Below, piece by piece: positions 42,516 to 60,139 of a stretch of DNA of 64,000 nt. Source of the stretch: an uncultured Verrucomicrobiae bacterium (lineage in GTDB: Bacteria > Verrucomicrobiota > Verrucomicrobiia > Chthoniobacterales > UBA10450); assembly GCA_963815455.1 (NCBI GenBank), contig CAWFGO010000001.1:192001-256000 (forward strand), written 5' to 3'. The stretch's first letter is position 1, and the number at the start of each line of letters is the position of its first letter. Below the pieces are notes generated by a model, which did no database searches, had not been told where the DNA came from, and saw only the letters and a list, made by a program, of their open reading frames with translations. Both the position numbers and the translations under genes were made by a program.

Positions 42516-42623
42516 GGTGATTCGATTTGGAACATGACCTTGAATGGGCCGGGCAGAATTTCAAGCCGCTTCCCTCAATGAGAAAGCGGACACCATGAAG
42601 CAGTTCCATTCGAGTTTGGCCGT

Positions 42624-42652
42624 TTGACAGAAAACCAGCTTTCTGGGAATCT
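42624..42652 (+). promoter_or_regulatory. vapBC promoter with overlapping palindromic operator
   Basis: TTGACA, 17 bp, GAATCT, 6 bp, ATG; CCAG-CTTT-CTGG palindrome in the spacer. Confidence 0.55.
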
Positions 42653-42658
42653 GGCTTT

Positions 42659-42883
42659 ATGAAAACCACCCTGGACCTCCCCGACGATCTGATGCGCGAG
42701 GTGAAAATCCGCGCCGTGCACGAGCATAAAAAGCTCAAGGACACGATCGCGGAATTGATTCGCAAAGGGATGGCCGCGTCGAACTCCCGGCGCCCGAAAC
42801 TGCCGAAGCCGGTGAAACTGCGCGGCGGATTCAAGCCGACGACCGAAGACATTGAGGCAGCCATCGCGTGGGGTCGCGATTGA
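42659..42883 (+). CDS. vapB: RHH antitoxin (VapB-like)
   Basis: MKTTLDLPDDL ribbon-helix-helix start; lies upstream of a PIN gene. Confidence 0.8.
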   Translation: MKTTLDLPDDLMREVKIRAVHEHKKLKDTIAELIRKGMAASNSRRPKLPKPVKLRGGFKPTTEDIEAAIAWGRD

Positions 42884-42896
42884 TTGCGATGCTCTA

Positions 42897-43304
42897 ATGG
42901 TCGTTGTCGATACAAACATCATTGCGCCGCTGTATGTGCGAAGCGCGCGCACTAACACGGTCGAGGAATTATTCGCGCGCGATGCGGTCTGGCGCACTGA
43001 ACCTCTGGCCCTGATCGAGCTAAGCAATGTGCTGATTACGTATGAGCGATCGCGATACATTACCGCCAAGGTCGCGCGCGATTGCCTCAATCGCGCCGCT
43101 GCGTTTCTACAGCCGCACTTCTTTCGAGTGAGCCACCAAGCCGCTCTCGAGGCCGCGCTCCGTCATCGCGTCACAGCCTACGATGCGCGCTTTCTCGCCC
43201 TGGCGGAGCAACTCGACAGCCGGCTTGTTACAGAAGACGCAAAGCTTCGCGCGGCCGCGCCGGCGCTTACCCAATCACTGGCCGAGGCGCTCGCCACTGA
43301 CTAG
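42897..43304 (+). CDS. vapC: PIN-domain toxin (VapC-like)
   Basis: VVDTN, E, TAYDARFLALA, LVTED. Confidence 0.85.
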   Translation: MVVVDTNIIAPLYVRSARTNTVEELFARDAVWRTEPLALIELSNVLITYERSRYITAKVARDCLNRAAAFLQPHFFRVSHQAALEAALRHRVTAYDARFLALAEQLDSRLVTEDAKLRAAAPALTQSLAEALATD

Positions 43305-43326
43305 GAATTCTGTCTTCATCGACACC

Positions 43327-45069
43327 ATGAATCCGCGCAACTTTTTCGGCGAGCTAAAGCGGCGCAACGTTTACAAGGTCGCCGTGGCTTACGCCGTGGT
43401 TTCGTGGCTGATCATTCAAGTCGCCACCCAGGTCTTTCCTTTCTTTGAGATTCCGAACTGGACCGTGCGCCTTGTGGTGATTCTCATGATCCTGGGCTTC
43501 CCGGTTGCGTTGGTCCTCGCCTGGGCGTTTGAACTCACTCCCGAGGGGCTGAAGCGCACGGAAGATGTCGATCCTGCGGCATCGGCGTATCAACCAAGAA
43601 AGCGAGCATGGATTTTTGTGGTCATCATCGCCGGCGCGATGTCGCTCGGTTTGTTTTTTCTCGGGCGCTACACGGCGCCGGGCAAGCAAAGCCGAGTCGT
43701 CCAGGGTTCTTCAGAATCGATCGCAGTGCTGCCTTTCGTCAACATGAGTTCGGACAAGGAGCAGGAATATTTCTCCGATGGTTTGTCCGAAGAATTGTTG
43801 AATCAGTTGGCGCAGATTCCGCAGTTGCGCGTGATCGCGCGCACTTCATCGTTTTCGTTTAAGGGCAAGGAGGTCGATGTCGCGACAATCGCCAAGATTC
43901 TCAACGTGGCCAATGTGCTCGAAGGCAGCGTACGCAAGTCGGCCAATACCTTGCGCATCACTGCGCAGCTCGTCCGCGCATCCGACAGCTCGCATCTCTG
44001 GTCGCAAACTTATGACCGCGACCTGACGGACGTGTTCAAGGTGCAGGATGAGATTTCCCGAGATGTCGTCGCCGCGCTGAAGGTGAAGCTGTTACCCACG
44101 CAGCAGCCTGCGAACCTGCAGCGCACGACTAGCAGTGAAGCCTATGAACAAGTCCTTATCGGGAAAGAGGCGCGGAAGCACGGCGGCTACGAAGCCTTTC
44201 AACGTGCTGTAACCGCTTTTCAACACGCGGTCGATCTCGATCCTAATTACGCCAATGCCTACGCCGGACTGGCCCAGGCCCAGGCGTTCTCAGCGGATTT
44301 CAGCGGCACGCCGGCGGAACGTGCGGCCGAAATTAAAAAAGCCTTCGCCAACGCGGACAAGGCAATCGAGTTGGCGCCCGATCTGGCGGCCGGCTATTGG
44401 GTACGCGGACTTCTCCGGCATCGCCTGAGTTGGGATTGGAAAGATGCGCAGGCGGATTTCAAACAGGCCGCCGCTCTCGCTCCGAACGACGTGGAGACCT
44501 TCAACTATGCGCAGGCCTTGTTCTTCAGCGGCCACCAGAGCGAAGCCTTTGCCATGGATCGGAAGGCGACCACGCTTGATCCTCTCTCTCCGGAAGCTTG
44601 GAATGTTCTCGGGTGGCATCATGCCTTCGCCGGGCAATACCCCGAGGCACGAGTAGCTTTAGAACGTGCCCTTGAACTGAGTCCAGACGTGCAATGGTCT
44701 GCTTTCTTGCTGGGTTATGTGGAACTAAAAGAAGGCAAGATCGACAAAGCCGCGGAATATTTTCGACGCGCGTCCGCCGCGTTCTCGCTGACAGGTCTGA
44801 CCATGTTGGAATATACAGTCGGCCATGAACACGAATCCCAACAACTACTGGCTGAGCTAAAGGAAAAATACGCGGTTGGCTTCGCCTACCAGATCGCGCA
44901 GGCCTCCGCCTGGCGCGGTGACAAGGATGGCGCTTTCGAATGGTTCGATCATGCCTACGATCAACACGACGCCGGCCTCTACCGGCTCCGTTACGATCCG
45001 ATGCTGGCCAGTTTGCACGACGATCCGCGCTGGGCCGGGCTGGTGAAGAAGATGGGCTTCTCGGAATGA
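43327..45069 (+). CDS. membrane-anchored TolB-like/TPR protein (array gene 1)
   Basis: FFGELKRRN head, three TMs, SIAVLPFVN, TPRs, DPML..DPRW tail. Confidence 0.85.
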   Translation: MNPRNFFGELKRRNVYKVAVAYAVVSWLIIQVATQVFPFFEIPNWTVRLVVILMILGFPVALVLAWAFELTPEGLKRTEDVDPAASAYQPRKRAWIFVVIIAGAMSLGLFFLGRYTAPGKQSRVVQGSSESIAVLPFVNMSSDKEQEYFSDGLSEELLNQLAQIPQLRVIARTSSFSFKGKEVDVATIAKILNVANVLEGSVRKSANTLRITAQLVRASDSSHLWSQTYDRDLTDVFKVQDEISRDVVAALKVKLLPTQQPANLQRTTSSEAYEQVLIGKEARKHGGYEAFQRAVTAFQHAVDLDPNYANAYAGLAQAQAFSADFSGTPAERAAEIKKAFANADKAIELAPDLAAGYWVRGLLRHRLSWDWKDAQADFKQAAALAPNDVETFNYAQALFFSGHQSEAFAMDRKATTLDPLSPEAWNVLGWHHAFAGQYPEARVALERALELSPDVQWSAFLLGYVELKEGKIDKAAEYFRRASAAFSLTGLTMLEYTVGHEHESQQLLAELKEKYAVGFAYQIAQASAWRGDKDGAFEWFDHAYDQHDAGLYRLRYDPMLASLHDDPRWAGLVKKMGFSE

Positions 45070-45073
45070 AGAC

Positions 45074-46876
45074 ATGAACTTCTTCGAAGAACTCAAACGC
45101 CGCAAAGTATTCAAGGTCGGCGCGGCCTACCTGGTGGTGGCGTGGCTTGTCGTGCAGGCGGCTTCGATCGGATTTCCCGCCTTTGATTCACCGCCTTGGG
45201 TGCTGCGCGTCTTCATCCTGATCGCGCTGCTCGGGTTTCCGATCGCGGTGGTGATGGCGTGGGTGTTCGATATCACACCGGAGGGGGTAAAGCTCGATTC
45301 CAGCGCGTCGGGCAGCAAGCTTCTCTTCGCCGCGGCTGCGTTGCTGGTCGTTCTGGCACTCGGCTGGTATTTCTACGGCCAGCCATCGTTTCGCAAGGGC
45401 GATGTGGCTACACCGACAATTGCCGATCGGAATTCGATCGCCGTCCTGCCCTTCGCCAACACGAGCGGTAAGACGGAGGAGGATTATTTCTCGGATGGCA
45501 TGACTGAGGAGTTATTGAACGTGCTCGCCAGGGTGCCGCAACTCAAGGTGGTGGCACGCACCTCGGTCTTTCAATTTAAGGACAAGGGCGGCGACGTGCG
45601 CGAAATTGGTCGCAAGCTCGGCGTGACGAACATTGTTGAGGGTAGTGTTCGTCGCGATGGTCAAGAGGTACGGATCACCGCGCAGTTGGTGCGCGTCGCC
45701 GACGGCTTTCACATTTGGTCCGAAACCTACGATCGCAAACTGGAGAAGGTGTTCGCGTTGCAGGATGAAATCGCGCGACGCATTGGCAATGCGCTTAAGC
45801 TTTCGTTAGGCGTCTCGGCTCCCGTTGTTACGCGCGCGCCCATCGAACCGGAAGCCTACGATGAGTATCTCAAGGGTCGGGCGCTGCTGCGCCAACGCAT
45901 TGATCTGCCATCCGCGATCGCGCATTTGAAGACAGCCGTAGCGAAGGCCCCGGAGTTCGCCGCGGGTTGGTCGTCGCTGTCGCTCACCTATGAGGTAAGC
46001 TTCTGGTACACTGCGCACATGACGCCCGGTCTCGAAGCGGAATTTCTCGCTGGGGAAGCCGCGGCGGCCGAGCGCGCCGCCGCGATCGAGCCGGAGAGCG
46101 CAACCACCCAGCATGCCGTGGGCAACGTCGCGCGCGCGCAGTTCAAGTTTGCCCAGGCCGAAAGCCATTACCTGCGCGCCATGCAGATCGATCCGGGCTA
46201 CCCCGATGTGCGCGAAGATTATGCCGAACTTCTCTACGAAGTCGGCCGCGCGGAAGATTCCATGGTCGCGGCGCGCCAGCTGGTGAAGCTTGATCCTTAC
46301 TTCATTGTCGGCTGGGTCCGCCTGCGCGATGCCGCGGCCGCGGCGGACCGTCGTGAAGAGGTCGAGGAGGCGGTGCGCCAGATGCGCGCCATCAATCCAA
46401 AATACGCCGCGGGCCGGTTCGGACTTTTTCAGTATGCCGTCGCTTATGGCCGATTGGAAGACGCCCGCGCCGAGCTCGCTGACATTGATTCACACTGGCC
46501 TAACGAAACCGGTTTCGCGCAAACCTTGCTGGCCTGGGCCCGGGACGATCCGGGTATTGATCCAGCGAAGCTGCGCGCGGCGATCGCGGATGCGCCGGAG
46601 AACGAGGCGAGCTACTTCCTGATCGCGCGTCGCGACATTGACGGCTACAACGCCGATATCCAAAGCCATGGCGCCGTTCTCGAGGCCTACTACTTCGCCA
46701 ATCTTTACAGCAGCAAGCCCGCCGGACAGGCCATGCTGCGGGATCAACGTGTGAAAGCCACGCTGACGCGGTACTCTTTCCCGGTTTACTGGCGAGAGAA
46801 AGGCTGGCCGCCCGGGTGCCGGCCGCTCGGCGAAACCGATTTCGAATGCGGCTTGGATACGACGAGCGGCAAATGA
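45074..46876 (+). CDS. membrane-anchored TolB-like/TPR protein (array gene 2)
   Basis: FFEELKRRKV head, SIAVLPFAN, TPRs, C-terminal GWPPGCRP..DFEC. Confidence 0.85.
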   Translation: MNFFEELKRRKVFKVGAAYLVVAWLVVQAASIGFPAFDSPPWVLRVFILIALLGFPIAVVMAWVFDITPEGVKLDSSASGSKLLFAAAALLVVLALGWYFYGQPSFRKGDVATPTIADRNSIAVLPFANTSGKTEEDYFSDGMTEELLNVLARVPQLKVVARTSVFQFKDKGGDVREIGRKLGVTNIVEGSVRRDGQEVRITAQLVRVADGFHIWSETYDRKLEKVFALQDEIARRIGNALKLSLGVSAPVVTRAPIEPEAYDEYLKGRALLRQRIDLPSAIAHLKTAVAKAPEFAAGWSSLSLTYEVSFWYTAHMTPGLEAEFLAGEAAAAERAAAIEPESATTQHAVGNVARAQFKFAQAESHYLRAMQIDPGYPDVREDYAELLYEVGRAEDSMVAARQLVKLDPYFIVGWVRLRDAAAAADRREEVEEAVRQMRAINPKYAAGRFGLFQYAVAYGRLEDARAELADIDSHWPNETGFAQTLLAWARDDPGIDPAKLRAAIADAPENEASYFLIARRDIDGYNADIQSHGAVLEAYYFANLYSSKPAGQAMLRDQRVKATLTRYSFPVYWREKGWPPGCRPLGETDFECGLDTTSGK

Positions 46877-46877
46877 G

Positions 46878-48902
46878 ATGAGTTTTTTCGCTCAACTTAA
46901 ACAGCGCAAGCTGGTGCAATGGACCCTGGCTTATATCGCGGCGGCGTTCGCGCTTCTCCAGGGCATCGACATTGTCGCGCAGCGATTCGGCTGGCCCGAA
47001 CAAACGATGCGTCTCGTCATCATCGCGTTGAGTGTCGGCTTCTTCGTTACAATTGTCCTGGCGTGGTATCATGGAGAACGGGGCTCGCAGCGCGTGACCG
47101 GAACCGAACTCTTGATTCTGGCTCTCCTGCTGGCTATCGGCGGCGGCTTTCTCTGGCAGTTTGCCGGCACTTCGCACCAGCGGCTCGTTAGCCCCACTTC
47201 GACCGTGTCACCCGGGGGGCCCGCCGCGATCCCGCAGAAATCGATCGCGGTGTTGCCGTTCGAAAATCTAAGCGACGACAAGGGTGCCGCTTATTTCGCC
47301 GACGGCATTCAGGATGAAATCCTGACCAAGCTGGCCAGCATCGCCGATTTGAAAGTAATCTCGCGCACATCGACCGCGAAATACAAGAGCAAGCCGGAAG
47401 ATCTAAAGACAGTTTCGCAACAGCTTGGCGTCGCGACCGTTCTCGAAGGCAGTGTGCAAAAAGCGGCCGACAAGGTGCGCGTGAACGTGCAGCTTATCGA
47501 TGCCCGCGCCGATTCGCATCTTTGGGCCAAAACCTACGATCGCGACATCCGGGATGTCTTTGCCGTTGAAAGTGAAGTGGCGCAGGAGATCGCCGATTCA
47601 CTGAAAGCGAAATTGTCGCCCGCCGAGGCGAACACCGTGGCGAGCGCGCCGACGCAAGACACCGAGGCCTATGATCTCTTCCTCAAAGGCGAGTTCGAGC
47701 AGCGTGCCGCCAACAGCAATTTCCGGGCGGAATCATTCGACCAGGCAGTGCGCTGGTACAAGGACGCGATCGCGCGTGACCCGAACTTTGCCCTAGCGAT
47801 GGCGCAACTGGCGATCTGCCAGCTGCGTCGTCATTGGCTAACGGATCCATTAACCGAGGCGGAAGTGATGGACGCGGGCAAAATGGCAAAGCAGTCGCTG
47901 GCACTCGCTCCCGACCTTGCTGAATCGCATATCGCGGTCGGGCTGTTTCACTACTATGGGTTTCGCGAGTACGAGCCGGCTTTAACTGAATTTCAGCGCG
48001 CTCTTCAGCTCCAGCCTAACAACGCGCTGGCGCTCTCGTTTGTAGCTTTTGTGCATCGCCGGCAGGGTAAATGGCAGCTCACGCTGGACGAACTGAAGAA
48101 ATCATTCGAGCTCGACCCACGAAATCCCTACATCGTGGGAGGCCTGGCGGAGACCAATATCTTTCTGCGTCGTTGGAAAGAAGCCGAAGATTTTGCCCAG
48201 CGTGGGCTCACAATCGATCCACACGAATCCACCTGCATGCGCATGTTGCTGCTCAGTCATTTGAACGGCACCGGGAATGCGCCGGAAGCTTTGCGACTAC
48301 TCGCGACCTTCCCGCCGGACGACCTGTTGCTTCCTAATACCGGCATGTTTGCCATGGTCATCGGGACCCGGGGCGAAACGTTTGTTCTGGGCCGGGACTT
48401 CAAGGCGGCATTACAGTCATGCGAAATCGGGACAGCGGCTACGACCAACGAATGGCAACGGTTTGCCGCCAGAGCGGGGATCCGTATCCTGGCCGGCGAT
48501 GTTGCCGGGGCCCAGTCTGATGCCGAGAAAGCGCGCGAGTTACTAGAGGCGAGGCAGCACGATCATCCGCGCGACATTCGTTCGCTCAGAGCATTGAGCT
48601 GGGCTTACCTCGCCCTCAACCGCAAGACGGACGCGATCAACACCGCCCGACGAGCCGTCGAGTTAATACCGCTGGAGAAGGACGCGGTGCTCGGTTCCGG
48701 CAACCTGGCCGCCCTGGCTGAAATGCAGGCGCGAACCGGCGCAACTAAAGAAGCAGTGGAGAATCTGAAAAAACTTCTCTCCATCCCGGCGGGCGAGACC
48801 GTTTCCATCGCGCGCCTTAAGATCGATCCGGTCTGGGATCCGATTCGGAACGACCCCGGCTTTCAACAACTGCTCGCGATGAAGGAGCGCGTGGGACCCT
48901 AA
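46878..48902 (+). CDS. membrane-anchored TolB-like/TPR protein (array gene 3)
   Basis: LKQRKLVQW head, SIAVLPFEN, TPRs, DPVWDPIR tail. Confidence 0.85.
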   Translation: MSFFAQLKQRKLVQWTLAYIAAAFALLQGIDIVAQRFGWPEQTMRLVIIALSVGFFVTIVLAWYHGERGSQRVTGTELLILALLLAIGGGFLWQFAGTSHQRLVSPTSTVSPGGPAAIPQKSIAVLPFENLSDDKGAAYFADGIQDEILTKLASIADLKVISRTSTAKYKSKPEDLKTVSQQLGVATVLEGSVQKAADKVRVNVQLIDARADSHLWAKTYDRDIRDVFAVESEVAQEIADSLKAKLSPAEANTVASAPTQDTEAYDLFLKGEFEQRAANSNFRAESFDQAVRWYKDAIARDPNFALAMAQLAICQLRRHWLTDPLTEAEVMDAGKMAKQSLALAPDLAESHIAVGLFHYYGFREYEPALTEFQRALQLQPNNALALSFVAFVHRRQGKWQLTLDELKKSFELDPRNPYIVGGLAETNIFLRRWKEAEDFAQRGLTIDPHESTCMRMLLLSHLNGTGNAPEALRLLATFPPDDLLLPNTGMFAMVIGTRGETFVLGRDFKAALQSCEIGTAATTNEWQRFAARAGIRILAGDVAGAQSDAEKARELLEARQHDHPRDIRSLRALSWAYLALNRKTDAINTARRAVELIPLEKDAVLGSGNLAALAEMQARTGATKEAVENLKKLLSIPAGETVSIARLKIDPVWDPIRNDPGFQQLLAMKERVGP

Positions 48903-48905
48903 CAA

Positions 48906-51332
48906 GTGGCTACGTCATCCGAACAACCTTCCGATGTGAAGTTCGAGATCGGGCATGTCTTGTTCATCGACATTGTCGGTTACTCGAAGTTGCTGATCAA
49001 CGAACAGAGCGAGCAGATTCAAAAATTAAAACAGATCGTGCGCGGAACGGAGCAATTCCGCATCGCTGAAGCGGAAGGCAAACTGCTGCGGTTACCGACT
49101 GGCGACGGTGGCGCACTGGTTTTTCGAAACAGTCCGGAAGCGCCTGTTCTGTGCGCGCTTGAGATTAGCAAGGCGCTAAAAAATCATCCCGAACTTCACG
49201 TTCGCATGGGAATCCATAGCGGTCCGGTCAATGAAGTTGTCGATCTAAACGAACAAGCGAATATCGCCGGCGCTGGGATTAATATCGCGCAGCGTGTGAT
49301 GGATTGTGGCGATGCCGGCCACATTCTTCTTTCCGTCATGTCGCGGAAGATTTGGAACATTACCCGCGTTGGCGAATCTACCTGCATGAACTTAGGGGAA
49401 GTGCGAAGTAAAACATGGTGTCCAAATTACGCTGGTGAACTTCTGTTCGCAAGCGAAGTCGGCAACTCGGAGCTGCCGGCCAAGTTTCAGAACGCGAAAG
49501 ATGAAAAGTCGTGCGCTCGCGGCGCCGGAGAATCGCAGGAATCGTGCTTTTCATTTCTTGCTCGTATCCATATTGGCATTTGGTGCTGATGGCTGTTACT
49601 CCAGCGATTCGACAAGATGCGTCACTCAACGACCACGGGGGGAGTAGTCGGACATCTTTATCCCAGAAAAGAGTATAGCCGTTCTGCCATTCATAAACTT
49701 AAGTGAAGAGAAGGAGAACGCCTTCTTTGCGGATGGCATGCAGGACGAAGATGCTGACTGACTTGTCGCGTATTGCCGATCTCAAAGTGATCAGTCGTAC
49801 CAGCGTGATGCAATACAAGAATGCTGGCACGCGTAATCTGCGCGAGATCGCGAGGCCAACTCGGCGTAGTTTACTTCCTGGAAGGCAGTGTCCAGCGTGC
49901 CGCCGGAAAGGTAAGGGTGATCACGCAGCTAATCGATGCGCGAAGCGACAGCCATGTCTGGGCAAAGACGTTCGATAGCCCACTGGATGATATCTTTGCC
50001 GTGCAGAGCGAGATTGCTCAGACCATCGCACAACAGTTACACGCCCAAATTTCGCCGGAAGCCAAGGCCGCGATTGAAGAGAAACCGACAAAGGATCTGC
50101 TCGCGTATGATCTCTACCTGCAGGCCACTCAGCTTTGGCATAACATCGCCACCTCGAAAGACTGGGAAGGAGATAATCGCAAAGCAATCGAACTACTCGA
50201 ACGCGCGGTCCAGCGGGATCCCCAGTTTGCCATTGCTTACAGCTTACTCTCCCAACTGCACCGGAACCTTTACACGTGGAGCGACTTCAGTACCGCCAGA
50301 CTGGCTCAGGTGAAAGCGGCCCTCGACGCGGCGATACGTCTCGCGCCGGAAAAGGCCGAAACTTATATAGCCCGCGCCGGCTACGAAGGAGCTATTGACC
50401 ACGACTACGATGCCCAACTCAAGGATTTGACCCACGCCGCCGAGCTGCTTCCGGGCGATTCGGAGGTTCTGATCGATCTCGCTTCCGCCCAGCGACGCCA
50501 TGCCAGATGGGATGAGGCTGTGCGGACCATGGAAAAGGCGCGAGAGCTGGATCCCAGAGGACCAAATGTCCCAAACCATCTCACCACGCTTTATATGGAA
50601 TTGCGCAACTACCCCAAGTGTGACGAGGTCGCAGACGACGCGATCAAGGCCTTCCCAGATGCGCCGGGATATTTCCAAGCCGCGAAAGTGGAAAGCGCCC
50701 TGGCGCGCGGCGATACCAAACTGGCCCGGCAAAGACTGGCAGCCATTCCAAAAGAATGGGACCCAAGCGCCTATCGCTCGTTAATGGCCATAAACCTGGC
50801 TATGGCTGACCGAAACTATGAGGAAGCAAAGCAGCTTCTCGCGGGTCTGGATCGGAAGAAAGTAATCGCCGCTCTCGAGGTAAATCTTGCCGTTTGGGAG
50901 GCGCTGCTCGCGCGCGACCAGGGCGATCCCGCCAAGTCTAAGTCCATCCTTCAGCCATTGCGGGATGCCAGAGCGAAAATGGTGGAGGAGGCTCCGAACG
51001 ACACCGGATATTACGAAGAACTGAGTTTGCTCGACGCCTACCTCGGGCGTAAAGACGAGGCTCTGCGCGAAGCCGAGAAGGCGGTCCAGTTACGACCGAT
51101 TACCCGGGACGCGACTGGTGGTGCGGAAGTCCTTGGCAATCTTGCCCATATTTGTGCATTAACCGGTGATCATGACCGCGCAATTCAATTGCTCGAGCAG
51201 GTAGCGACAATTCCATACGGTCCTTCCTACGGAAACCTCCTCATGCCGGGCTGGGATGACCTGCGCGGCGATCCGCGCTTCGAGAAGATCGTCGCCTCGT
51301 TAGCGCCGAAGAAAGTCACTTCGAACAAATGA
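48906..51332 (+). pseudogene. class III cyclase + TolB-like/TPR gene (array gene 4), multiply frameshifted at 49330-49860
   Basis: Cyclase motifs run to GHILLS. RHVAEDL, CEVKHG, EVGNSELP, PEKSIAVLPF and DLKVISRTS then appear in alternating frames. The TPR half is intact. Confidence 0.75.
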
Positions 51333-53452
51333 AGATCGACAATGGAACCGGCGGGAGCCGAGAGACATCGACGGGAAAGCCCGGCAGGGTTGACGAGCGG
51401 GGACGTGAGTCAATCAATTTCTTTGCCGAACTAAAGCGGCGCAACGTTTACAAGGTTGCGGTCGCCTACATTGTAGCGGGATGGGCGCTGTCGCAGGGAA
51501 TTGCACAGGTCCTTCCGATTTTCGATGTTCCGATCTGGTTCGTTCGATCGATTGTCCTGCTAATCATTCTCGGTCTGCCAATCGCGCTGGTTCTGGCCTG
51601 GATGTTTGAGATAACACCGGAAGGAATCAAACGAACCGAAACCGCCGATGCGATGCCCACGGCGACGCGAAAAAAGAAGCACACCTGGATTTACGTCGTT
51701 GCAGCAGGTGCGGTCCTCTCCATCGGTCTTTTCCTACTCGGTCGATACACCGGTCAGAATGTCGCGAGTGCGGCTCGCACCGAGGCGACTGCAAGTTCAT
51801 CGATTCCGCAAAAATCGATCGCGGTGTTGCCCTTCGAAAACCTGAGCAGCGACAAGGAGAACGCGTACTTCGCGGATGGCATTCAGGAAGAAATCCTAAC
51901 GCGGCTCGCCAAGATCGCGGATTTGAAAGTGATCTCGCGCACTTCAACTCAGCAGTATCAGAGCAAGCCCGGCAATCTCGCCGAGATCGCAAAGCAACTG
52001 GGTGTCGCGAACATCCTGGAAGGCAGTGTCCAGAAAGCGGCGGATCAGGTGCGCGTCAACGTCCAACTCATCCGGGCGGCCACCGATTCGCATCTGTGGG
52101 CCGATACCTACGACCGCAAACTGGTCGATATCTTCGGTGTCGAGAGCGAAGTCGCGAAAGCAATCGCCGACGCGCTCCAAGCGAAGCTTACCGGCGGCGA
52201 GCGGCAAGCGCTCGGGGTGAAGCCGACCAACAATTCAGAGGCTTACGACGCGTATCTCCGGGGGTTGGCTCTTGAAGCACGCGTATCCGCTCCAAACGAT
52301 TTTGAGAAGGTCGTCGGCTTTTACCAGCAGGCGGTGCAGCTCGACCCAGTTTTTGCGCTCGCCTGGGCCAGACTCTCTCGTGCAAACGCTCACGCGTATT
52401 TCGCCGGTGTAGATACGACTCGCGCCGCTCGCCGTGAGGCGACGGAGCGGGCCTTAAACACCGCGCAGAAACTCCAACCAAACTCGCCCGAGACCCTGCT
52501 CGCGCAAGCTTACTATCAATATTGGGTGTTGCGGAATTACGAGATTGCCAAAGCGACGTTCGGGCGCGTCCGGGAGCTTTTGCCGGGTAGCAGCGATGTC
52601 CCTGCCGCTCTCGCCCTAATCGCCCGACGACAAGGGCGCTGGGATGAAAGCGTTGCCTACTGGGAGCAAACCCTTGCGCTCGATCCGCGTAACACTGAAT
52701 GGCTTGGAAGCGTCGGAGAGACTTACGCAATGCTTCGGCGATTCCCAGCTGCGCTAAAAATATACGATAGATTGTTGGACATCGTTCCGAATGACTCCAC
52801 CGCCGTCGCGTTCGAAGCAAAAATTTATCAGGCCGAGGGCAATTTGGAACAAGCCGGGAAATTGTTGGCTGGCGTAAACGCGCAGACCCCTTCGTTTCTG
52901 GCCTTCATAACGAAGTTGAACCAATTATTTTTTGAGCGCGATTTCGACGAAGCCATCCGATTGATTCATGGCCGACGCACTGAATCTCGCGACCTGTCCG
53001 AGATCGAAAGGCTCCTTAATCCATTCTTTCTAGTCGCCGCCCAGGAATTTGCCGGGGATATTGCCGGAGCGCGAGCCACTGCTCAACAACTGTTGCCTAC
53101 GCTGGAAACGCTCCGCCAAAAGGCCCCGGATAACCCTGATCTTGAGACAGCGCTTTCGTTCATTCATGCTGTGCTCGGCCAGAAAGATGCAGCGATAAAG
53201 GAAGCTGAGCGCGCGATCACGCTGCTGCCAAGTGCGAAGGACGCAGTAGATGGACCCAAGTACGAGGAAAATTTGGCGGCGATCGAGGCAATGGTCGGCG
53301 ACAAAGACCGCGCGATTCCAGGGCTGCAGCACCTTTTGGAGATTCCGTATACCAACTTCCTTACGCCCGCGCTTCTAATGTTCGATCCGCAATGGGACCC
53401 GTTGCGTAACGACCCGCGTTTCCGGAAACTCTGCGAAGACAAGACAAAGTGA
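51329..53452 (+). CDS. membrane-anchored TolB-like/TPR protein (array gene 5)
   Basis: ATGA overlap; FFAELKRRN head after a 24-aa insert; SIAVLPFEN; DPQWDPLR tail. Confidence 0.85.
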   Translation: MKIDNGTGGSRETSTGKPGRVDERGRESINFFAELKRRNVYKVAVAYIVAGWALSQGIAQVLPIFDVPIWFVRSIVLLIILGLPIALVLAWMFEITPEGIKRTETADAMPTATRKKKHTWIYVVAAGAVLSIGLFLLGRYTGQNVASAARTEATASSSIPQKSIAVLPFENLSSDKENAYFADGIQEEILTRLAKIADLKVISRTSTQQYQSKPGNLAEIAKQLGVANILEGSVQKAADQVRVNVQLIRAATDSHLWADTYDRKLVDIFGVESEVAKAIADALQAKLTGGERQALGVKPTNNSEAYDAYLRGLALEARVSAPNDFEKVVGFYQQAVQLDPVFALAWARLSRANAHAYFAGVDTTRAARREATERALNTAQKLQPNSPETLLAQAYYQYWVLRNYEIAKATFGRVRELLPGSSDVPAALALIARRQGRWDESVAYWEQTLALDPRNTEWLGSVGETYAMLRRFPAALKIYDRLLDIVPNDSTAVAFEAKIYQAEGNLEQAGKLLAGVNAQTPSFLAFITKLNQLFFERDFDEAIRLIHGRRTESRDLSEIERLLNPFFLVAAQEFAGDIAGARATAQQLLPTLETLRQKAPDNPDLETALSFIHAVLGQKDAAIKEAERAITLLPSAKDAVDGPKYEENLAAIEAMVGDKDRAIPGLQHLLEIPYTNFLTPALLMFDPQWDPLRNDPRFRKLCEDKTK

Positions 53453-55512
53453 GCTCACGCAATTTTTTCGGAGAACTGAAGCGGCGCAATGTTTACAAGG
53501 TTGCCGTCGCGTATGCCGTCGTTGGCTGGCTGCTCATTCAGGTCGCTACGCAGGTTTTTCCATTTCTCGACATTCCAAATTCGGTTGTGCGATGGGTCAT
53601 TGTATCGGTGGCGATTGGGTTTCCAATCGCCCTGTTCGCGGCATGGGCGTTTGAACTGACGCCCGAAGGTTTGAAACGCACGGAAGATGTCGATCCTGCA
53701 GCTTCGGCGCACCAGCCAAAAAAGCAGACCTGGATTTTTGTCGTGATCGTCGGAGCTATTCTTTCCATCGGATTGTTTTTTGTCGGCCGCTACACGGCTC
53801 CGAATACCAGCAGCGCGTCGCAACCGCCTGCCAAATCGATCGCGGTATTGCCGTTCGAAAATCTGAGTGCCGACAAAGACAACGGCTACTTCGCGACTGG
53901 AATGCAGGACGAAATCCTCACGCGCCTGGCTGGTATTCGCGATCTCAAGGTGATCTCGCGCACCTCGACCGAACAATACGCCAGCCGTCCGCCGAATTTG
54001 AAAATCGTGGCCGAACAACTGGGCGTGGCGACGGTGCTCGAGGGCAGCGTGCAGAAGGCCGGGAATGCTCTTCATATCAACGTGCAGCTGCTCGATGCGC
54101 GCAGTGACAGTCATCTCTGGGCGCAGAGTTACGACCGCGACCTGAAGGATATCTTCGGGGTGCAGCGCGATGTGGCGCAGAATGTCGCCGATGCCTTGAA
54201 GGCGCATTTAGTCCCGGCGGAGTCGGCTCGCATCGCCAGCGTGCCAACGCAGAATCCCGAAGCCTACGATCTCTACCTGCGCGGCAATGCTCACTATCAG
54301 CGCGCATATGATCAAAGCGCGCTGACCTCCAGGGAGATGCCACTGGCGATTGAGGCGTATCAACAGGCGCTGGCGAAGGATCCAAACTTCGCGGTTGCCG
54401 CGGCGATGTTAGCGCAAACGCATATGCGGATTTATTGGCTATTGCCCGACCGGACCGAGGCTCGATTGGCTGCCGCCAAGGCGGCGGCGGACCAGGCCCT
54501 GGCTCTGCAACCGGACCTGGGCGAGGCGCACGTGGCGCTTGGAACCTACTGGTACTACGGTCATCGCGACTACGCGCAGGCTTTACTGCAACTCGATCTC
54601 GCGCAAAAATCCCTGCCCAACAGCGCCACCGTCGAGCTCTATGTCGGGGCCATCTTGCGACGCCAGGGTCAATGGGACGACGCCATCACTCATATGCAAC
54701 GGGCGATCGCGCTCGATCCGCGAAGCAGTCTATCCATTGATCAATTGGCTATCGTCTATCAGACTTTGCGTCGTTACGCCGAGGCCGAGCCGGTGTTCGC
54801 GCGGGCCGTTGCTGTAACCCAGGACCCGACTGACGAACAGATCACGCAAGCCTTTAACTATGTGGTCTGGAAAGGTGACCTCGCTCCAATGCGCGCTGCG
54901 GTCGCCTCCCTCACCGTCGGGGGCGCCGACTATTCCGGGAATGCGCTGTCCGTATTCCAACTCAGTTGGTGGTCGCGTAATTTCTCGGGAGCGGCAAAGG
55001 TGGCGGAAAATGATATGCAGGCCAACTGGGCCGATCAAAGCAACGTCACTTTGCCTCGGCGTTTATATCTCGCGTTCGCCTATCAGGCCGGCGGAGATAA
55101 GGCAAAGGCACAGCCACTTTACGCTGAGGTCCGCGCGCAAATGCAAACCGTTTTGGTCCAGCGTCCCGACGATCCCGATCTGCATCTGGCCCTCGGCTTC
55201 GCCGCCGCTGGGCTGGGACTCAAGGACGAGGCGATACGTGAGGGACGCAAAGCCACTGCTCTGATGCCAGTGAGTCGCGACGGTTACAGTGGTCCGGGCT
55301 ACCTTGTTCAGTTAGCGCAGATCTACCTGCGCGTGGGCGAAAACGATCAAGCGATCGATACGTTGCGTGAAGTGCTGGCTTTGCCGTCGGGCGGCGTTGC
55401 CATTTCGCCCGCCTTGATCAACCTGGATCCCATCTGGGATCTGCTGCGCAACGATCCGCGCTTCCGGAAGCTGACACAATCGAAGGCGGCGGGCGAAAAA
55501 AATTCAAAATGA
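53449..55512 (+). CDS. membrane-anchored TolB-like/TPR protein (array gene 6)
   Basis: GTGA overlap; same architecture; DPIWDLLR tail. Confidence 0.85.
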   Translation: MSSRNFFGELKRRNVYKVAVAYAVVGWLLIQVATQVFPFLDIPNSVVRWVIVSVAIGFPIALFAAWAFELTPEGLKRTEDVDPAASAHQPKKQTWIFVVIVGAILSIGLFFVGRYTAPNTSSASQPPAKSIAVLPFENLSADKDNGYFATGMQDEILTRLAGIRDLKVISRTSTEQYASRPPNLKIVAEQLGVATVLEGSVQKAGNALHINVQLLDARSDSHLWAQSYDRDLKDIFGVQRDVAQNVADALKAHLVPAESARIASVPTQNPEAYDLYLRGNAHYQRAYDQSALTSREMPLAIEAYQQALAKDPNFAVAAAMLAQTHMRIYWLLPDRTEARLAAAKAAADQALALQPDLGEAHVALGTYWYYGHRDYAQALLQLDLAQKSLPNSATVELYVGAILRRQGQWDDAITHMQRAIALDPRSSLSIDQLAIVYQTLRRYAEAEPVFARAVAVTQDPTDEQITQAFNYVVWKGDLAPMRAAVASLTVGGADYSGNALSVFQLSWWSRNFSGAAKVAENDMQANWADQSNVTLPRRLYLAFAYQAGGDKAKAQPLYAEVRAQMQTVLVQRPDDPDLHLALGFAAAGLGLKDEAIREGRKATALMPVSRDGYSGPGYLVQLAQIYLRVGENDQAIDTLREVLALPSGGVAISPALINLDPIWDLLRNDPRFRKLTQSKAAGEKNSK

Positions 55513-57278
55513 ACGAATTCCTGCAGCGCCTAAAGCAGCGCAAACTGGTGCAGTGGACGGTGGCCTATGTTGCGGCTGCGTTCGCGCTCCTCCAGGGCGT
55601 CGACATTGTCGCGCAGCGATTCGGCTGGCCCGAACAAACGATGCGCCTCGTCATCGTCGTGCTGAGCGTGGGCCTTTTCATCACGCTGGTTTTGGCCTGG
55701 TATCACGGAGAACGCGGCGCGCAACGCGTGACCGGGACCGAGCTGCTGATTCTTGCCTTGTTGCTGGCGATCGGCGGCGGTTTTCTCTGGCGATTTGCCG
55801 GCGCTTCGCGATCGATCGCGGCGCAGCCACCTTCAGAATCCAAATCAGCCGTCAACGCCAAGTCCGTTGCCGTACTCGCGTTCGCCAATCTTAGCGACGA
55901 TAAGGGCAGCGAATATTTTTCCGACGGCATCAGTGAGGAATTACTAACTGTGCTGCAAAAAATTCCCGGCCTACACGTGGCTGCGCGCACATCGGCGTTT
56001 TCTTTCAAAGGCAAAAACGCGACCGCGCAGGAGATCGGGCAGAAGCTTGGCGTGGCGCACCTGGTCGAGGGAAGTGTGCGCAAGGCGGGCGACGTCGTGC
56101 GCATCGCAGCCCGGCTCACCCAGGCCAATACCGGCGAAGAAGTCTGGTCGGAAAATTACACACGCAATTTGAAAGATGTGTTCGCGGTCCAAACCGAACT
56201 CGCGCAGACGATCGTCGAACAATTGCGCGGTCGATTTGCTGCAACGGATGCAGGGCCGACGGCAAAAGAAAAGATTCACGCGGAGGTGCAGGCGGCAGAA
56301 AAGGGCGGAACGAAAAACGTCGAAGCGCACGAATCCTATTTGCAAGGCCGTTTTTTTGCCAACCGCCACTCAGAAAAAGAAACGGACCAAGCCCTTGTCG
56401 CTTATGAACGGGCAGTGAAGCTGGATCCCAAATTCGCGCTCGCGTGGGCGGGGTTAGCCCAGACTCACGTCTGGAATTGCAACTATGCCACGGAGGGAGG
56501 CCAAAAAGGCTTCAACGCTCATCTGGCCGCCGCGCGCGAGGCCGTGGAACGAGCGCTTTCCTTCGAACCCGACCTGCCGGACGCGCTGTATCCAAAGGCG
56601 ATGATCGAAACAAATTTTGATTATGATTGGAAAGGTGCGGCCGAGACATTGCGCAAGGCCCTTGCTCTGGCCCCACAAGATCCGGCGCTGTTGATGGAGG
56701 CAGGAAATCTTGCGCAAGCTCGCGGCGAAACCACCCAGAGTCTCGATCTTTTCCGGCGGGCGGTTGCCTTGGACCCGGTGAATGCCCAAGCTCGGGCGTT
56801 TCTCGCGGGCAGTTTATCGGTCTCGGGGAAGCAGGAGGAAGCGCGGACGGAATACGCCCGCGAGATTGAGTTGAACCCGTCAGCACCGAATTCCCATGCC
56901 GGTGTAGGCTTGACTTATCTTTTGGAAGGCAAATTTGAAGAAGCGGCGGTGGCTGCGCAAAAGGACGCGGCCGATTGGGCACGACTCCTCATCGTGAGCT
57001 GCGCGCGCTGGAGCCAAAAGCGAGTTCCCGAGTCTGATGCAGCGCTTGGGGAGTTGATCGCAAACACCGGCGAAACCGGCGCCTACCAGATTGCTGAAGT
57101 CTACGGATATCGGAATGACAAGGATCATGCCTTCGAATGGTTGGAGCGCGCGCGCCGGCAACGCGATGCCGGTCTGCCCGTTTTGCGCGCAGATACATTG
57201 CTCCCTAATCTTCACGGCGATCCGCGGTGGGATTCATTTTTGCGCAAGATGGGCCTGGCCGACGACCAATTAAAATGA
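55509..57278 (+). CDS. membrane-anchored TolB-like/TPR protein (array gene 7)
   Basis: ATGA overlap; LKQRKLVQW head; SVAVLAFAN; TPRs. Confidence 0.85.
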   Translation: MNEFLQRLKQRKLVQWTVAYVAAAFALLQGVDIVAQRFGWPEQTMRLVIVVLSVGLFITLVLAWYHGERGAQRVTGTELLILALLLAIGGGFLWRFAGASRSIAAQPPSESKSAVNAKSVAVLAFANLSDDKGSEYFSDGISEELLTVLQKIPGLHVAARTSAFSFKGKNATAQEIGQKLGVAHLVEGSVRKAGDVVRIAARLTQANTGEEVWSENYTRNLKDVFAVQTELAQTIVEQLRGRFAATDAGPTAKEKIHAEVQAAEKGGTKNVEAHESYLQGRFFANRHSEKETDQALVAYERAVKLDPKFALAWAGLAQTHVWNCNYATEGGQKGFNAHLAAAREAVERALSFEPDLPDALYPKAMIETNFDYDWKGAAETLRKALALAPQDPALLMEAGNLAQARGETTQSLDLFRRAVALDPVNAQARAFLAGSLSVSGKQEEARTEYAREIELNPSAPNSHAGVGLTYLLEGKFEEAAVAAQKDAADWARLLIVSCARWSQKRVPESDAALGELIANTGETGAYQIAEVYGYRNDKDHAFEWLERARRQRDAGLPVLRADTLLPNLHGDPRWDSFLRKMGLADDQLK

Positions 57279-59023
57279 GCGGCCGCAATTTCTTCGCCGA
57301 GTTAAAACGGCGCAATGTTTACAAAGTCGCCGTCGCGTATGCGGTCGCCGGATGGGCCCTCGCGCAAGGCATCGCCCAGGTTTTTCCGGTTTTCGATATC
57401 CCAAACTGGGCAGTGCGTCTGATCGTGCTGGTGATCGTGATCGGATTTCCCGTTGCGCTTGTGATTGCGTGGGCGTTTGAGCTTACGCCGGAGGGGCTGA
57501 AGCGAACCGAAGATGTCGATCCTGCGGCATCGGCGCATCAACCGAAAAAACGGACATGGATTTTTGTCGTCATCATCGGCGGCGCAATTTCGCTCGGTTT
57601 ATTCCTTCTCGGTCGCTACAGCGCGACAACAACCGCAGCTCTGCCGGCGAAATCGATCGCCGTCCTTCCCTTCGATAATCTGAGCCGCGATCCGGACAAC
57701 GCTTACTTTTGTGAAGGCGTGCAGGATGAAATTCTAACTCGGCTCGCGAAGGTCGCAGACCTGAAGGTGATCTCGCGCACCTCGACCCAACATTTCAAGA
57801 GTGCGCCGGACAATCTTCCCGAGATCGCAAAGCAACTCGGCGTGGCTCACATTTTAGAGGGAAGTGTGCAGAAAGCAGGCGAGCAGGTGCGCGTGAATGT
57901 GCAGCTTATTAACGCGCTAACCGACGCGCATCTCTGGGCCGACACTTACGATCGCAAGTTGACCGATATTTTCGCGGTAGAGAGCGAGATCGCGAAAACA
58001 ATCGCGGAGACGTTGCGAGCCCGCCTGACCGGCTCGGAAAAAAGCTCGATCGCGAAAGAGCCGACATCGAATCCGGAAGCATACGAGCTTTACCTCAAGG
58101 GAAGATTTTTTTGGAACAAACGCAACGGCGACGATCTGCGCAAAGCGATCGACTATTTTAATCGAGCGATTGCCAAAGATCCGAATTACGCGCTGGCCTA
58201 TGTCGGCGTGGCGGATTCCTACCTGCTTCTTCCCAACTATGGCGCAGTCTCTCCAGTTGATTCAATCCCACCGGCGCGCTCCGCGTTGAAGAAGGCGCTG
58301 GCGCTCGACGACTCGCTGGCGGAAGCACACGCTTCGTCGGGTCTACTCGCAACCGTCGAGCTGGATCTCCAACCCGCGATTGACGAGTTGAAACGGGCGG
58401 TCGAGTTGAAACCGAACTACGCAACCGCCCATCACTGGCTCGCTTTGGCCTGGATGACAGTGAGGCAATTCGATCCCGCCATCGCCGAAGCGAAACGCGC
58501 GGTCGCACTTGACCCGCTCTCGCTAATCATCAATGCCGATTTCAGCTGGCTTTATCTCTGTAGCCGGCGCTACGACGAGGCGGAAGCGCAAGCGCGCAAA
58601 ACCCTGGAGATCGATCCCAACTTTTTTCTGGCGCATTACTATCTTGGTGAAATTTTGCAATTCAAAGGTCGCCTGACCGATGCGATCGCCGAATATCAAA
58701 AGGCGTTCGACCTAACGAACGATCCATACCCGCTCGCCGCCCTGGGCCAGGCGCGCGCTCGAAACGGACAAAAGGACGAAGCGCGCAAGATTCTTGACCG
58801 ACTTAATCAAGAAGCAAAGTCACGCTTTGTCGCGCCTTATGCGAAGGCGCTGGTTCTCAACGCGCTGGGCGAGAAAGCGCAGGCCATCGACGAACTGGAA
58901 CGCGCCTACCGCGAAGGCACCGGCGCTTACCTTTTCGTCATCACAGTGGATCCCATGGTCGATGATCTGCGCGGCGATCCGCGCTTCGAAGCGCTCGCTC
59001 AGAAGATAACGGGCGGGAAATAG
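57275..59023 (+). CDS. membrane-anchored TolB-like/TPR protein (array gene 8)
   Basis: ATGA overlap; FFAELKRRN head; AYELYLKGRFFWNKR; DPMVDDLRGDPRF tail. Confidence 0.85.
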   Translation: MSGRNFFAELKRRNVYKVAVAYAVAGWALAQGIAQVFPVFDIPNWAVRLIVLVIVIGFPVALVIAWAFELTPEGLKRTEDVDPAASAHQPKKRTWIFVVIIGGAISLGLFLLGRYSATTTAALPAKSIAVLPFDNLSRDPDNAYFCEGVQDEILTRLAKVADLKVISRTSTQHFKSAPDNLPEIAKQLGVAHILEGSVQKAGEQVRVNVQLINALTDAHLWADTYDRKLTDIFAVESEIAKTIAETLRARLTGSEKSSIAKEPTSNPEAYELYLKGRFFWNKRNGDDLRKAIDYFNRAIAKDPNYALAYVGVADSYLLLPNYGAVSPVDSIPPARSALKKALALDDSLAEAHASSGLLATVELDLQPAIDELKRAVELKPNYATAHHWLALAWMTVRQFDPAIAEAKRAVALDPLSLIINADFSWLYLCSRRYDEAEAQARKTLEIDPNFFLAHYYLGEILQFKGRLTDAIAEYQKAFDLTNDPYPLAALGQARARNGQKDEARKILDRLNQEAKSRFVAPYAKALVLNALGEKAQAIDELERAYREGTGAYLFVITVDPMVDDLRGDPRFEALAQKITGGK

Positions 59024-59034
59024 TAAAGATCGGA

Positions 59035-59970
59035 TCACCTTGGGCGGTGTTGCTCGGCCAGCTTCACCAAAGTAAACAGCGCGTGGTTGACGGGAACATT
59101 GACGCCCAACTCCGCTCCTCGTCGAGATACATAGCCGTTTAACGAATCAATCTCGGTAGGCCGGCCGCGATTGAGATCCTGCGCCGTGGAGGAGAGCGCG
59201 CCAGCCATTTGAGTGGCAATCTCCATCGCCGCGGCCATTCCTGCTTTCGCATCGGCGATGTCGGGCAAAATTACTTTCGCAGCCCGTGCTACGGCCAGGA
59301 CTTCTTCGACGACGCTCTGCATCACCTGCCGCGCGTCGTTGCTTTCGGCGATCTGGCCATAACGAGCCTGGCCCAGGGCCGAGATGGCATTCAGCGCGCA
59401 GTTGCAAAGAAGTTTAGCCCACAATTCACCTTCGATGTTGTTCGAAATCTCACAGCGGATGCCGGCGCGGCCGAAAATGTCCGCCACATACTTCGTTTCT
59501 TCATTGGGCGGTCCGACAATGATATCACCGCGCGCCAAATGTTTTATGTGGCCTGGCTCCGGCACGGACACGGCAATGTAAACGGCGGCTGAAACAGCGG
59601 AGACGTCGGCGGCTTCGCGGATCTGGTCAACGTTATTTACTCCGTTTTGCAGACTCACAATCGTCGCATCCTTTGCGAGGAAAGGGGCCATTTGTGTTGC
59701 CGCGAACGGCGTATCCATCGATTTCACACAAAACAGAATCAGCCGGGCATCGCGCACCGAGCTCATGTCGGCCGTGGCTTCGACGCTGATCCGTTCCCGC
59801 TCTTGCGACCGATCGAGGACGAGCCCATTTTGTTTGACCGCATCGACAAATTGTTGTCGGCCAATCATCACAACCGGAGCACCCGCCCGCACAAACATCC
59901 CGCCGAAATAGCCGCCAACCGCACCGGCGCCCACGACGGCTATTCGCGGCCATTCATCGCCCTTCGTCAT
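59035..59970 (-). CDS. panE: 2-dehydropantoate 2-reductase
   Basis: GAGAVGG, CVKS, LQNG, WAKL..N, SSTAQD, EIDSLNG. Confidence 0.9.
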   Translation of the reverse strand: MTKGDEWPRIAVVGAGAVGGYFGGMFVRAGAPVVMIGRQQFVDAVKQNGLVLDRSQERERISVEATADMSSVRDARLILFCVKSMDTPFAATQMAPFLAKDATIVSLQNGVNNVDQIREAADVSAVSAAVYIAVSVPEPGHIKHLARGDIIVGPPNEETKYVADIFGRAGIRCEISNNIEGELWAKLLCNCALNAISALGQARYGQIAESNDARQVMQSVVEEVLAVARAAKVILPDIADAKAGMAAAMEIATQMAGALSSTAQDLNRGRPTEIDSLNGYVSRRGAELGVNVPVNHALFTLVKLAEQHRPR

Positions 59971-60095
59971 ACGTCCTTATACTAGCAGTTACTTCGTAGC
60001 GTAACTGCATTGTCGAAAGCTATTCACTCTGGACCAGTTGCTCGGGGAGACGTCACTTCGACGCGCGTGCAGACAATTATCCGCGGGAAATAACC

Positions 60096-60136
60096 AAGAT
60101 CGACAATCGCTTTTTCCGAACTGAACCGGCGCAATT
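60096..60136 (+). pseudogene. relic 5' end of a TolB-like/TPR paralog
   Basis: AAGATCGACAAT (as at 51332) followed by TTTTCCGAACTGAACCGGCGCAAT, reading FSELNRRN. Confidence 0.45.
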
Positions 60137-60139
60137 GTT

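Follow-up and report, generated by a model that had tools for sequence, protein, structure and literature searches.

A variable-content array of modular membrane proteins with CadC-like sensors, probable receptors, in Chthoniobacterales

The stretch of DNA analyzed here (the window: 64,000 nucleotides, C1:192001-256000 of G000, the genome under study, assembled to 3.62 Mb in 7 contigs from an uncultured Verrucomicrobiae bacterium) carries an array of eight paralogous units, g1 to g8, on the + strand at 43327-59023. Our bioinformatics analyses indicate that the array is likely a variable-content site of modular membrane proteins, probably receptors, each combining an exchangeable N-terminal head with a sensor built of a TolB-like domain and tetratricopeptide repeats (TPRs). 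As to how these proteins work, we lean slightly toward modular receptors of the CadC type, in which clustering of the sensor by a ligand would switch the fused head, and in which the three-helix membrane head found in seven of the eight would relay to a separate membrane partner.

The array and its CadC-like sensors

The genes are separated by gaps of 4, 1, and 3 bp and then by four ATGA or GTGA overlaps, so that the head-to-tail array of eight paralogs, at most 4 bp apart or overlapping, described in the original prediction is borne out by the coordinates. The same holds for its domain content: seven members have a basic amphipathic membrane head and one a cyclase head, all eight share the TolB-like domain (the start motif of which reads SVAVLAF in g7), the TPR regions diverge strongly (15-44% identity between paralogs of the array versus 34-76% for the TolB-like domain), and a cap is present in most, the NCBIfam TPR_END_plus model (NF047558) scoring above its cut-off in six of eight, with g1 at 26 against a cut-off of 32 and g2 without a match. 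The succession of TolB-like domain, TPRs, and cap is that of NF047558-type proteins, and domain E-values of 1e-40 to 1e-65 exclude chance. What the prediction had overlooked are the frameshifts in g4, a second array in the window, and the extent of the protein family in the genome, where a TolB-like profile search found 22 loci, 11 of them within the window. The heads of these 22 loci comprise 10 three-helix, 1 two-helix, 6 cyclase, 3 Ser/Thr kinase, and 1 TIR head and 1 fragment, and each intact enzyme head leads into a single membrane helix before the sensor. The TIR-headed protein (L081:3566-5815, on contig C3 of G000) shows a Toll-like layout of TIR domain, membrane helix, TolB-like domain, and TPRs.

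The sensor was compared with solved structures using the AlphaFold2 (AF2) model of g8, the fold search covering the sensor span (322 residues) with the head outside it. Among 48,161 solved chains, the best match was the periplasmic domain of CadC (3LY7; Z score 23.4, the next row reaching 19.1), with 308 of 322 residues aligned at a root mean square deviation of 4.2, and the N-terminal domain of TolB (1c5k) matched over 129 residues with a Z score of 14.4. Foldseek (CadC 3LYA, TM score 0.67), a sequence profile (3ly8, E 2e-4), and the NCBIfam CadC model (positions 215-418, E 2e-10) agree, and positions 23-151 of TIGR02800 (TolB) gave weak matches in g3 and g5. A PDB sequence search with g8 returned TPR proteins only, and a viral fold library generic TPRs only. 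On these models, the array sensors likely have a CadC-like fold, and they are predicted to face the periplasm.

In the available part of PMC5936718, CadC is described as activated by dimerization of its periplasmic domain, as binding cadaverine in a cavity and at the interface, as pairing with LysP through membrane and periplasmic contacts, and as carrying an acidic pH-sensing patch formed by D198, D200, E461, E468, and D471; its two-domain fold is described in the available part of 10.1101/2022.04.08.487670. Like E. coli CadC, the array proteins are predicted to place an alpha/beta sandwich and a TPR-like helical sensor in the same arrangement, with the N terminus in and the C terminus out. 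Unlike CadC, which is one gene beside its target operon, they occur as tens of arrayed paralogs, have three helices or an enzyme head, carry a longer TPR part with the TPR_END_plus cap, and lack the winged helix: Pfam gave no match to a winged-helix DNA-binding domain, the NCBIfam CadC/HilA matches begin at or after profile position 115, and the g8 model shows membrane helices in its place. The single membrane helix of CadC/ToxR regulators is found only in the enzyme-headed forms, seven genes of the array having three. The array proteins are therefore CadC-like on the input side, yet stand outside the CadC/ToxR regulators. A predicted two-copy complex of g8 residues 1-489 scored 0.00 and was not used as evidence.

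Exchange of modules at a variable site

Heads and sensors have separate histories. Within the array, g3 and g7 share 79% identity in the head and 46% in the TolB-like domain, as against 28% and 74%, respectively, for g3 and g5. Across relatives, pairwise identity leaps from ~20-40% to 90% where the TolB-like domain sets in, head and sensor identities are uncorrelated (rho -0.26 and 0.07), heads fall below 60% in 25 of 33 sensor pairs that are at least 80% identical, and 12 of 38 multi-member sensor types carry mixed heads. For example, of the 28 complete cases of the g7 sensor type (30 loci), 11 have a cyclase and 17 a three-helix head, the latter of three kinds in relatives, and the well-supported branches of the tree of this type force three changes between cyclase and three-helix heads. 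The sole repeat common to all eight genes (60-75% DNA identity) is the stretch with which the TolB-like domain begins, and crossover in the conserved stretch coding for KSIAVLPF is a plausible swap mechanism. The original prediction of a constant scaffold with a fast-diversifying solenoid is thus to be revised, in that the travelling unit is the whole TolB-like and TPR sensor and it is the head that is swapped; in the g1 type, identities of 92% (TolB-like) and 34% (TPR) point to some exchange between TolB-like domain and TPRs or to faster change of the latter. Joint movement of a sensor and the head encoded by the following gene was unsupported (rho 0.15).

The paralogs of the array are old, their four-fold degenerate sites agreeing at ~40%, i.e. 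saturated. A relative at 60% identity or more was found in the same genome for 2 of 81 TPR regions and in another genome for 33 of 81; therefore, the array was assembled from a shared pool and not by recent duplication. Two known routes to such variety were considered: the genes abut or overlap (4 bp at most) and their repeats are paralogous coding sequence only, unlike the attC signature of integrons (an integrase was not searched for), and no template/variable repeat pair of a diversity-generating retroelement was present in 42400-60300 (a reverse transcriptase was not searched for). Promoter and terminator scans stayed at chance level, and no tandem repeats or Rfam matches were found.

The site is bounded by prpD on the left and, on the right, by a gene for a probably secreted protein, which we take to be lipocalin-like by its GxW motif only and which has no PDB, Pfam, PHROG, or named Atlas match. 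All array comparisons are between species or genera. The number of receptors between these two flanks is zero in G002 and G062 (with a remnant in G078), one in G023, three in G022, five in G013 and G050, eight in G000, and about 9-10 in G053 and G057, and G018 has more than 15 beside the same right flank. Content and order also differ, g5 preceding g2 in G053. Among 20 loci, TPR types at 55% identity or more were found twice for g2, once each for g3, g5, and g6, eight times each for g7 and g8 (counts inflated by the choice of several loci through g7 or g8), and not at all for g1 and g4; identities reach 76% in G013 and 82% in G053 for g2, 81% in G057 for g3, 86% in G053 for g5, and 78% in G046 for g6. 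Sensor types recur across genera at 64-90% identity, and grouping of 253 intact receptors at 60% TPR identity gave 110 types, 72 of them singletons, for a Chao1 estimate of ~295. This variation, from none to about ten genes at one site, agrees with the predicted receptor repertoire of changing content and speaks against static orthologous sets with a known housekeeping role.

Receptors of this kind occur in all 24 genomes examined from the bacterial family, with 4-65 matches each (21 of 21 without three unpublished genomes), as compared with 2 of 16 genomes from other families of the order and 7 of 121 in the class; the g7 TPR region is matched in 58 of 201 genomes of the family, mostly once each. 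The lipocalin-like gene is present in 54 of 61 genomes of the family; as it is a convergent neighbor of an array in 11 of 30 loci, it was ruled out as an obligatory partner. One or another of the unpublished genomes G003, G008, and G015 is included in the denominators for family prevalence, the g7 TPR region, the g8 type, the lipocalin-like gene, and the b3 gene of the second array; the remaining results do not depend on these three genomes.

Table 1. Array genes and other features of the window
Feature	Position	Strand	Description
g1	43327-45069	+	three-helix head type A, TolB-like, short TPR, weak cap; 580 aa; AF2 model
g2	45074-46876	+	three-helix head, TolB-like, divergent TPR, capless, Cys-rich tail; 600 aa
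g3	46878-48902	+	three-helix head type B, TolB-like, long TPR, cap; 674 aa
g4	48906-51332	+	class III cyclase, one membrane helix, TolB-like, long TPR, cap; frame broken in assembly
g5	51329-53452	+	three-helix head type A, TolB-like, long TPR, cap; 707 aa
g6	53449-55512	+	three-helix head type A, TolB-like, long TPR, cap; 687 aa
g7	55509-57278	+	three-helix head type B, TolB-like, short TPR, cap; 589 aa
g8	57275-59023	+	three-helix head type A, TolB-like, short TPR, cap; 582 aa; AF2 predicted local distance difference test score 90.7
prpD/MmgE gene	41019-42515	-	left boundary of variable site
VapBC-like pair	42659-43304	+	74-aa partner without family match and PIN domain (PF01850); directly upstream of g1
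panE	59035-59970	-	ketopantoate reductase; convergent, within variable site; likewise in G057
GxW-motif protein gene	60242-60808	-	probably secreted, without family match; right boundary of variable site
second array	21758-27937	-	three genes of the protein family, b1-b3
b1	25550-27937	-	cyclase, membrane helix, TolB-like, TPR
b2	23505-25553	-	three-helix form
b3	21758-23491	-	two-helix form without helix 3; sensor predicted cytoplasmic
GYF_2 and Yip1 gene	20011-20898	-	membrane protein, just past second array
kelch-repeat and dockerin gene	899-2323	+	
second dockerin-bearing gene	15419-17692	+	large protein

The original prediction had proposed per-domain ratios of nonsynonymous to synonymous substitution (dN/dS) as a check. 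Over 41 pairs, these were mostly 0.02-0.09 in the TolB-like domain and, where estimable, 0.08-0.34 in the TPRs, with synonymous sites near saturation. In our own grid site-mixture model, applied to 28 g7-type and 29 g8-type genes, a site class with dN/dS above 1 received zero weight in both types (likelihood gain 0), and ~3% of g7-type sites had dN/dS near 1. The outcome is therefore purifying selection without a positively selected site class, at a depth of divergence that limits power.

Heads, partners, and alternative readings

In the AF2 model of g8, the helices of the head span residues 15-40, 44-67, and 94-116, and a beta-hairpin separates the second from the third. The mean number of Lys and Arg residues over 51 heads is 4.5 at the N terminus, 0.8 in the loop between helices 1 and 2, 4.5 in the loop between helices 2 and 3, and 2.1 after helix 3, and the positive-inside rule, together with the enzyme heads, suggests a topology for the three-helix form with the N terminus in, a short outer loop, an inner loop, and the sensor out. 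A simple hydropathy scan recovers three helices in 44 of 60 heads, and in 51 at a lower threshold; it misses some helices because helix 1 carries an invariant Gln. The invariant residues K11, R13, Y22, Q31, W66, and G74, shared across distant bacteria, are on the cytoplasmic side or are polar within the membrane. The head belongs to no Pfam or PHROG family and in the Atlas matches unnamed clusters only, from Pseudomonadota, Verrucomicrobiota, and Gemmatimonadota. A search with its profile hit 21,055 protein clusters built at 50% identity, of which 14,676 reached E 1e-10, many of the listed matches being fragments, and the head is nearly always followed by a TolB-like or TPR part, Xanthomonadales included. 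Homology of the amphipathic helix and first membrane helix to MscL was considered and rejected (hhalign probability 0.67%, with 3 of 40 local shuffles scoring equal).

A natural experiment on what this head needs is offered by G007, a 99% complete genome with 18 receptors of the three- or two-helix form, from which enzyme-headed ones are absent; an enzyme partner of the same family is therefore dispensable for the head, which likely signals through another. The same genome encodes seven membrane Ser/Thr kinases, none with an array-type sensor, and the cyclases examined in it lack the TolB-like domain; a further protein of G007 combines TPR-S with a class III cyclase (L249:726-2723), a layout of predicted conflict systems. 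A kinase is fused immediately N-terminal to the three-helix head in 14 of the 34 long proteins, through two types of junction, and additionally in P0066 (examples are P0005, P0012, P0019-P0021, and P0066), and we tentatively take these fusions to point to a Ser/Thr kinase as the partner of the head, a link that is for now rather doubtful. In P0022-P0033, the head is followed by two sensors in tandem, and other long homologs have up to three. G000 has 14 cyclase, 8 kinase, and 13 cyclic nucleotide monophosphate (cNMP)-binding matches; thus, ordinary second-messenger wiring is available.

Some members of the family depart from this topology. In b3 of the second array, helix 3 is missing, as it is at all 30 loci examined; the orthologs at these loci retain a head of their own, show 65-79% identity along the entire protein, and adjoin another gene of the protein family in 28 of the 30. 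As a full-length single-copy ortholog, b3 is present in ~39 of 121 genomes, limited to certain genera, and suggests pairs of inward- and outward-facing sensors formed through homologous heads in part of the family. A role as universal adaptor was ruled out, the b3 query being unmatched in several genomes rich in three-helix forms. The b3 orthologs also adjoin a gene for an HExxH membrane peptidase (M50-like by motif) in 27 of 30 loci, probably as one inherited locus. Proteins with cyclase, TolB-like domain, and TPRs without a membrane helix exist as well (G013:C1:292765 and G021:C1:308469, in L011 and L016/L017), which implies that the module functions in the cytoplasm too.

Proximity is what activates class III cyclases, Hanks kinases, and TIR domains. 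With the dimerization of CadC, this makes ligand-controlled clustering the simplest mechanism common to all heads. The periplasm-facing CadC-like sensor would bind a ligand and, by analogy with CadC and with the proximity-activated heads, dimerize or cluster; clustering would turn on whichever inner head is fused, and the enzyme-less three-helix head would relay to a separately encoded membrane partner, for which a Ser/Thr kinase may be the foremost candidate. The ligands are probably environmental small molecules or peptides rather than phage. A wider and somewhat unlikely version holds that the three-helix head is an undescribed output domain and the arrays a library of hundreds of conserved sensor cassettes, subject to gain and loss and rewired among cyclase, kinase, TIR, and three-helix outputs, possibly with the two-helix forms supplying the inward-facing side of in/out pairs, for Toll-like recognition of neighbors, predators, or phage.

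Several observations weigh against receptors of this kind. The kinase-head fusions may be accidental read-through of arrays, given that whole genes also fuse end to end (P0001, P0002, and P0018). The two- and zero-helix forms would put the same sensor in the cytoplasm, so that "periplasmic receptor" does not describe every member. In the commonest cyclase subtype, the Lys and Asp that usually specify ATP are absent, making its product uncertain. No neighbor from outside the protein family is consistent, the best occurring at 6 of 73 loci. Finally, variability does not clearly distinguish predicted concave from convex TPR positions (0.27 versus 0.23 in the g7 type, the register of the g8 type being unreliable), with the concave positions taken as 2, 5, 6, 9, 12, 13, 33, and 34 from the available part of PMC1261162.

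An alternative, which we consider unlikely, is that these are immune or conflict receptors, in which the TPR sensor detects proteins of phage, predators, or competitors and the swapped heads (TIR, kinase, cyclase, or a pore formed by the membrane helices) are defense effectors, as in STAND/Avs and NLR-like antiphage receptors. The resemblance lies in a TPR sensor with exchangeable TIR, kinase, or membrane effectors, an effector set also typical of conflict systems, to which can be added the cassette-like site, the large open repertoire of sensor types, a PIN toxin gene carried in four mapped arrays (embedded in those of G013, G021, and G053), a TrlF/Ppl-like ATPase near one array, and a weak match (E 1e-12) of the TIR-headed member to PADLOC TIR models. 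Against this, PADLOC matched neither nine open reading frames of the array nor, with Pycsar models included, four further cyclase forms, and gave rows for 4 of 85 neighbors scanned (92 listed), two of these being metabolic enzymes and the others the TrlF/Ppl-like ATPase and a short match of ATPase type. Unlike STAND/Avs proteins, those of the array span the membrane with a predicted external sensor, lie outside defense islands, and lack a STAND P-loop ATPase (none in Pfam, NCBIfam, and PADLOC scans), the central domain being TolB-like; the head has no MscL homology. The head was not found on the viral contigs searched, no plasmid among the listed matches covers it, and none of the 13 cNMP-binding matches of G000 lies in the window as an adjacent cNMP-sensing effector of the Pycsar or CBASS type. 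Likewise, two sensor types have no positively selected site class, and types persist across genera. Co-localization with defense genes, proposed in the original prediction as a check, was not seen, since the named neighbors are largely metabolic (amidase, peptidase T, major facilitator superfamily (MFS) transporters, oxidoreductases, acyl-CoA enzymes, pullulanase, catalase, and one IS110), and the immune reading has thus gained no positive support. Among individual neighbors, the TrlF-family ATPase stands beside an array at L001:3205-6255 (G007), the IS110 transposase inside one at L008:2113-3159 (G018), and a gene similar to pentameric ligand-gated ion channels directly after a large receptor array at L005:9140-10204 (G009).

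It is improbable, in our judgment, that the three-helix head is an anchor only, its bearers being non-signaling surface binding proteins for the capture of substrates or the scaffolding of envelope proteins, and the enzyme-headed minority alone signaling. The absence of a catalytic or DNA-binding motif and of a Pfam family from the head would fit this, as would the amidase, peptidase T, MFS transporter, and acyl-CoA enzyme genes nearby and the restriction of some sensor types to three-helix heads (27 of 27 g8-type loci with the head in view); however, the invariant residues exceed the needs of an anchor, the head is almost always tied to one kind of sensor, and the same sensor type has repeatedly moved between cyclase and three-helix heads. 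Quite improbable, too, is the proposal that the three-helix forms are co-receptors or decoys pairing obligatorily with cyclase- or kinase-headed family members, much as receptor-like proteins of plants do with receptor kinases. Most arrays intersperse the two forms and couple them translationally, some proteins carry two or three tandem sensors, and the TolB-like domain is highly constrained, but G007, with its 18 members and no enzyme-headed one, shows that pairing is not obligatory.

The broken frame of g4 bears on a last alternative. Its cyclase domain scores 28.4 bits for PF00211 against a cut-off of 21.9 and has both metal-binding Asp residues and the Asn/Arg pair of class III nucleotidyl cyclases. 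In the subtype of g4 (48906-49589) and its paralogs, Leu and Asn replace Lys and Asp at what we take to be the ATP-specifying positions, whereas a second subtype has Lys and Asp there; the cyclase of b1 has LipJ-like solved relatives. The frame of g4 changes at least four times net by blastx, and six or more times by motif reading, all within ~49334-49857 (~520 bp). We consider it likely that these changes are an assembly artifact or sequencing error, because frame changes also occur in 6 of 27 conserved non-family genes tested in G000 and because breaks in three-helix genes track assembly type (24 of 86 in long-read-type versus 4 of 68 in short-read-type records, as judged from record titles), although short-read records, too, contain broken cyclase forms (3 of 11), and breaks lie far more densely in g4 than in the G000 background. 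Other apparent pseudogenes of G000 call for the same caution. A search of sequencing runs found two soil runs at a share of 0.05, neither of RNA, whose contigs are those of relatives and therefore allow no judgment on g4. A decaying or neutral pile of paralogs without specific role, to which broken cyclase genes, remnants, and empty sites might point, is highly improbable and largely refuted by seven intact genes of eight, strong purifying selection, and the dependence of the breaks on assembly type.

Relation to known systems and significance

Besides CadC, the closest known proteins are rhizobial TolB_N-like/TPR cyclases and HTH-headed forms of Bacteroidota, annotated as "TolB-like protein", which share the TolB-like domain at 38-53% identity but lack the three-helix head, whereas the proteins described here are mostly enzyme-less and stand in variable tandem arrays. 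TolB-like cyclases of this kind presumably correspond to COG5616 and to CyaF of S. meliloti. Rhizobial CyaF2 is described as "of unknown function" in the available part of PMC5498481. VtrA/VtrC and ToxR/ToxS have a CadC-like periplasmic sandwich, according to the available part of 10.1101/2022.04.08.487670, and the adjacent secreted lipocalin-like gene is a possible parallel to them; here, however, this neighbor is convergent, lipocalin-like by motif only, and found at a minority of loci, and the TPR part of the sensor is retained. Plant receptor-like proteins and receptor kinases offer an analogy, being clustered and copy-variable, with and without a kinase, and exchanging ectodomains, but their folds are unrelated, and here no positive selection was detected and an enzyme partner of the same family is not required. 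Our literature search found no description of this architecture or of the arrays, mention in supplements of domain surveys being possible. New here are the series from empty to ten genes at one site, the selection tests, the natural experiment of G007, the kinase-head fusions, and the size of the family.

Work on the CadC sensor has so far dealt with one acid sensor of enteric bacteria; in the genomes described here, this fold appears as a mass-produced, exchangeable input module, with an estimated ~300 sensor types in small-genome soil Chthoniobacterales. The natural swaps between sensor and output make ligand discovery testable, as a sensor type carried on a canonical adenylate cyclase could be read out as cyclic AMP. 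The three-helix head constitutes a very large unnamed domain family and, if it is indeed a new transmembrane signaling module, would fill a gap across Verrucomicrobiota, Gammaproteobacteria, and Gemmatimonadota. From an ecological point of view, the arrays may, if the wider version were true, provide a Toll-like recognition system in one of the most abundant soil lineages.

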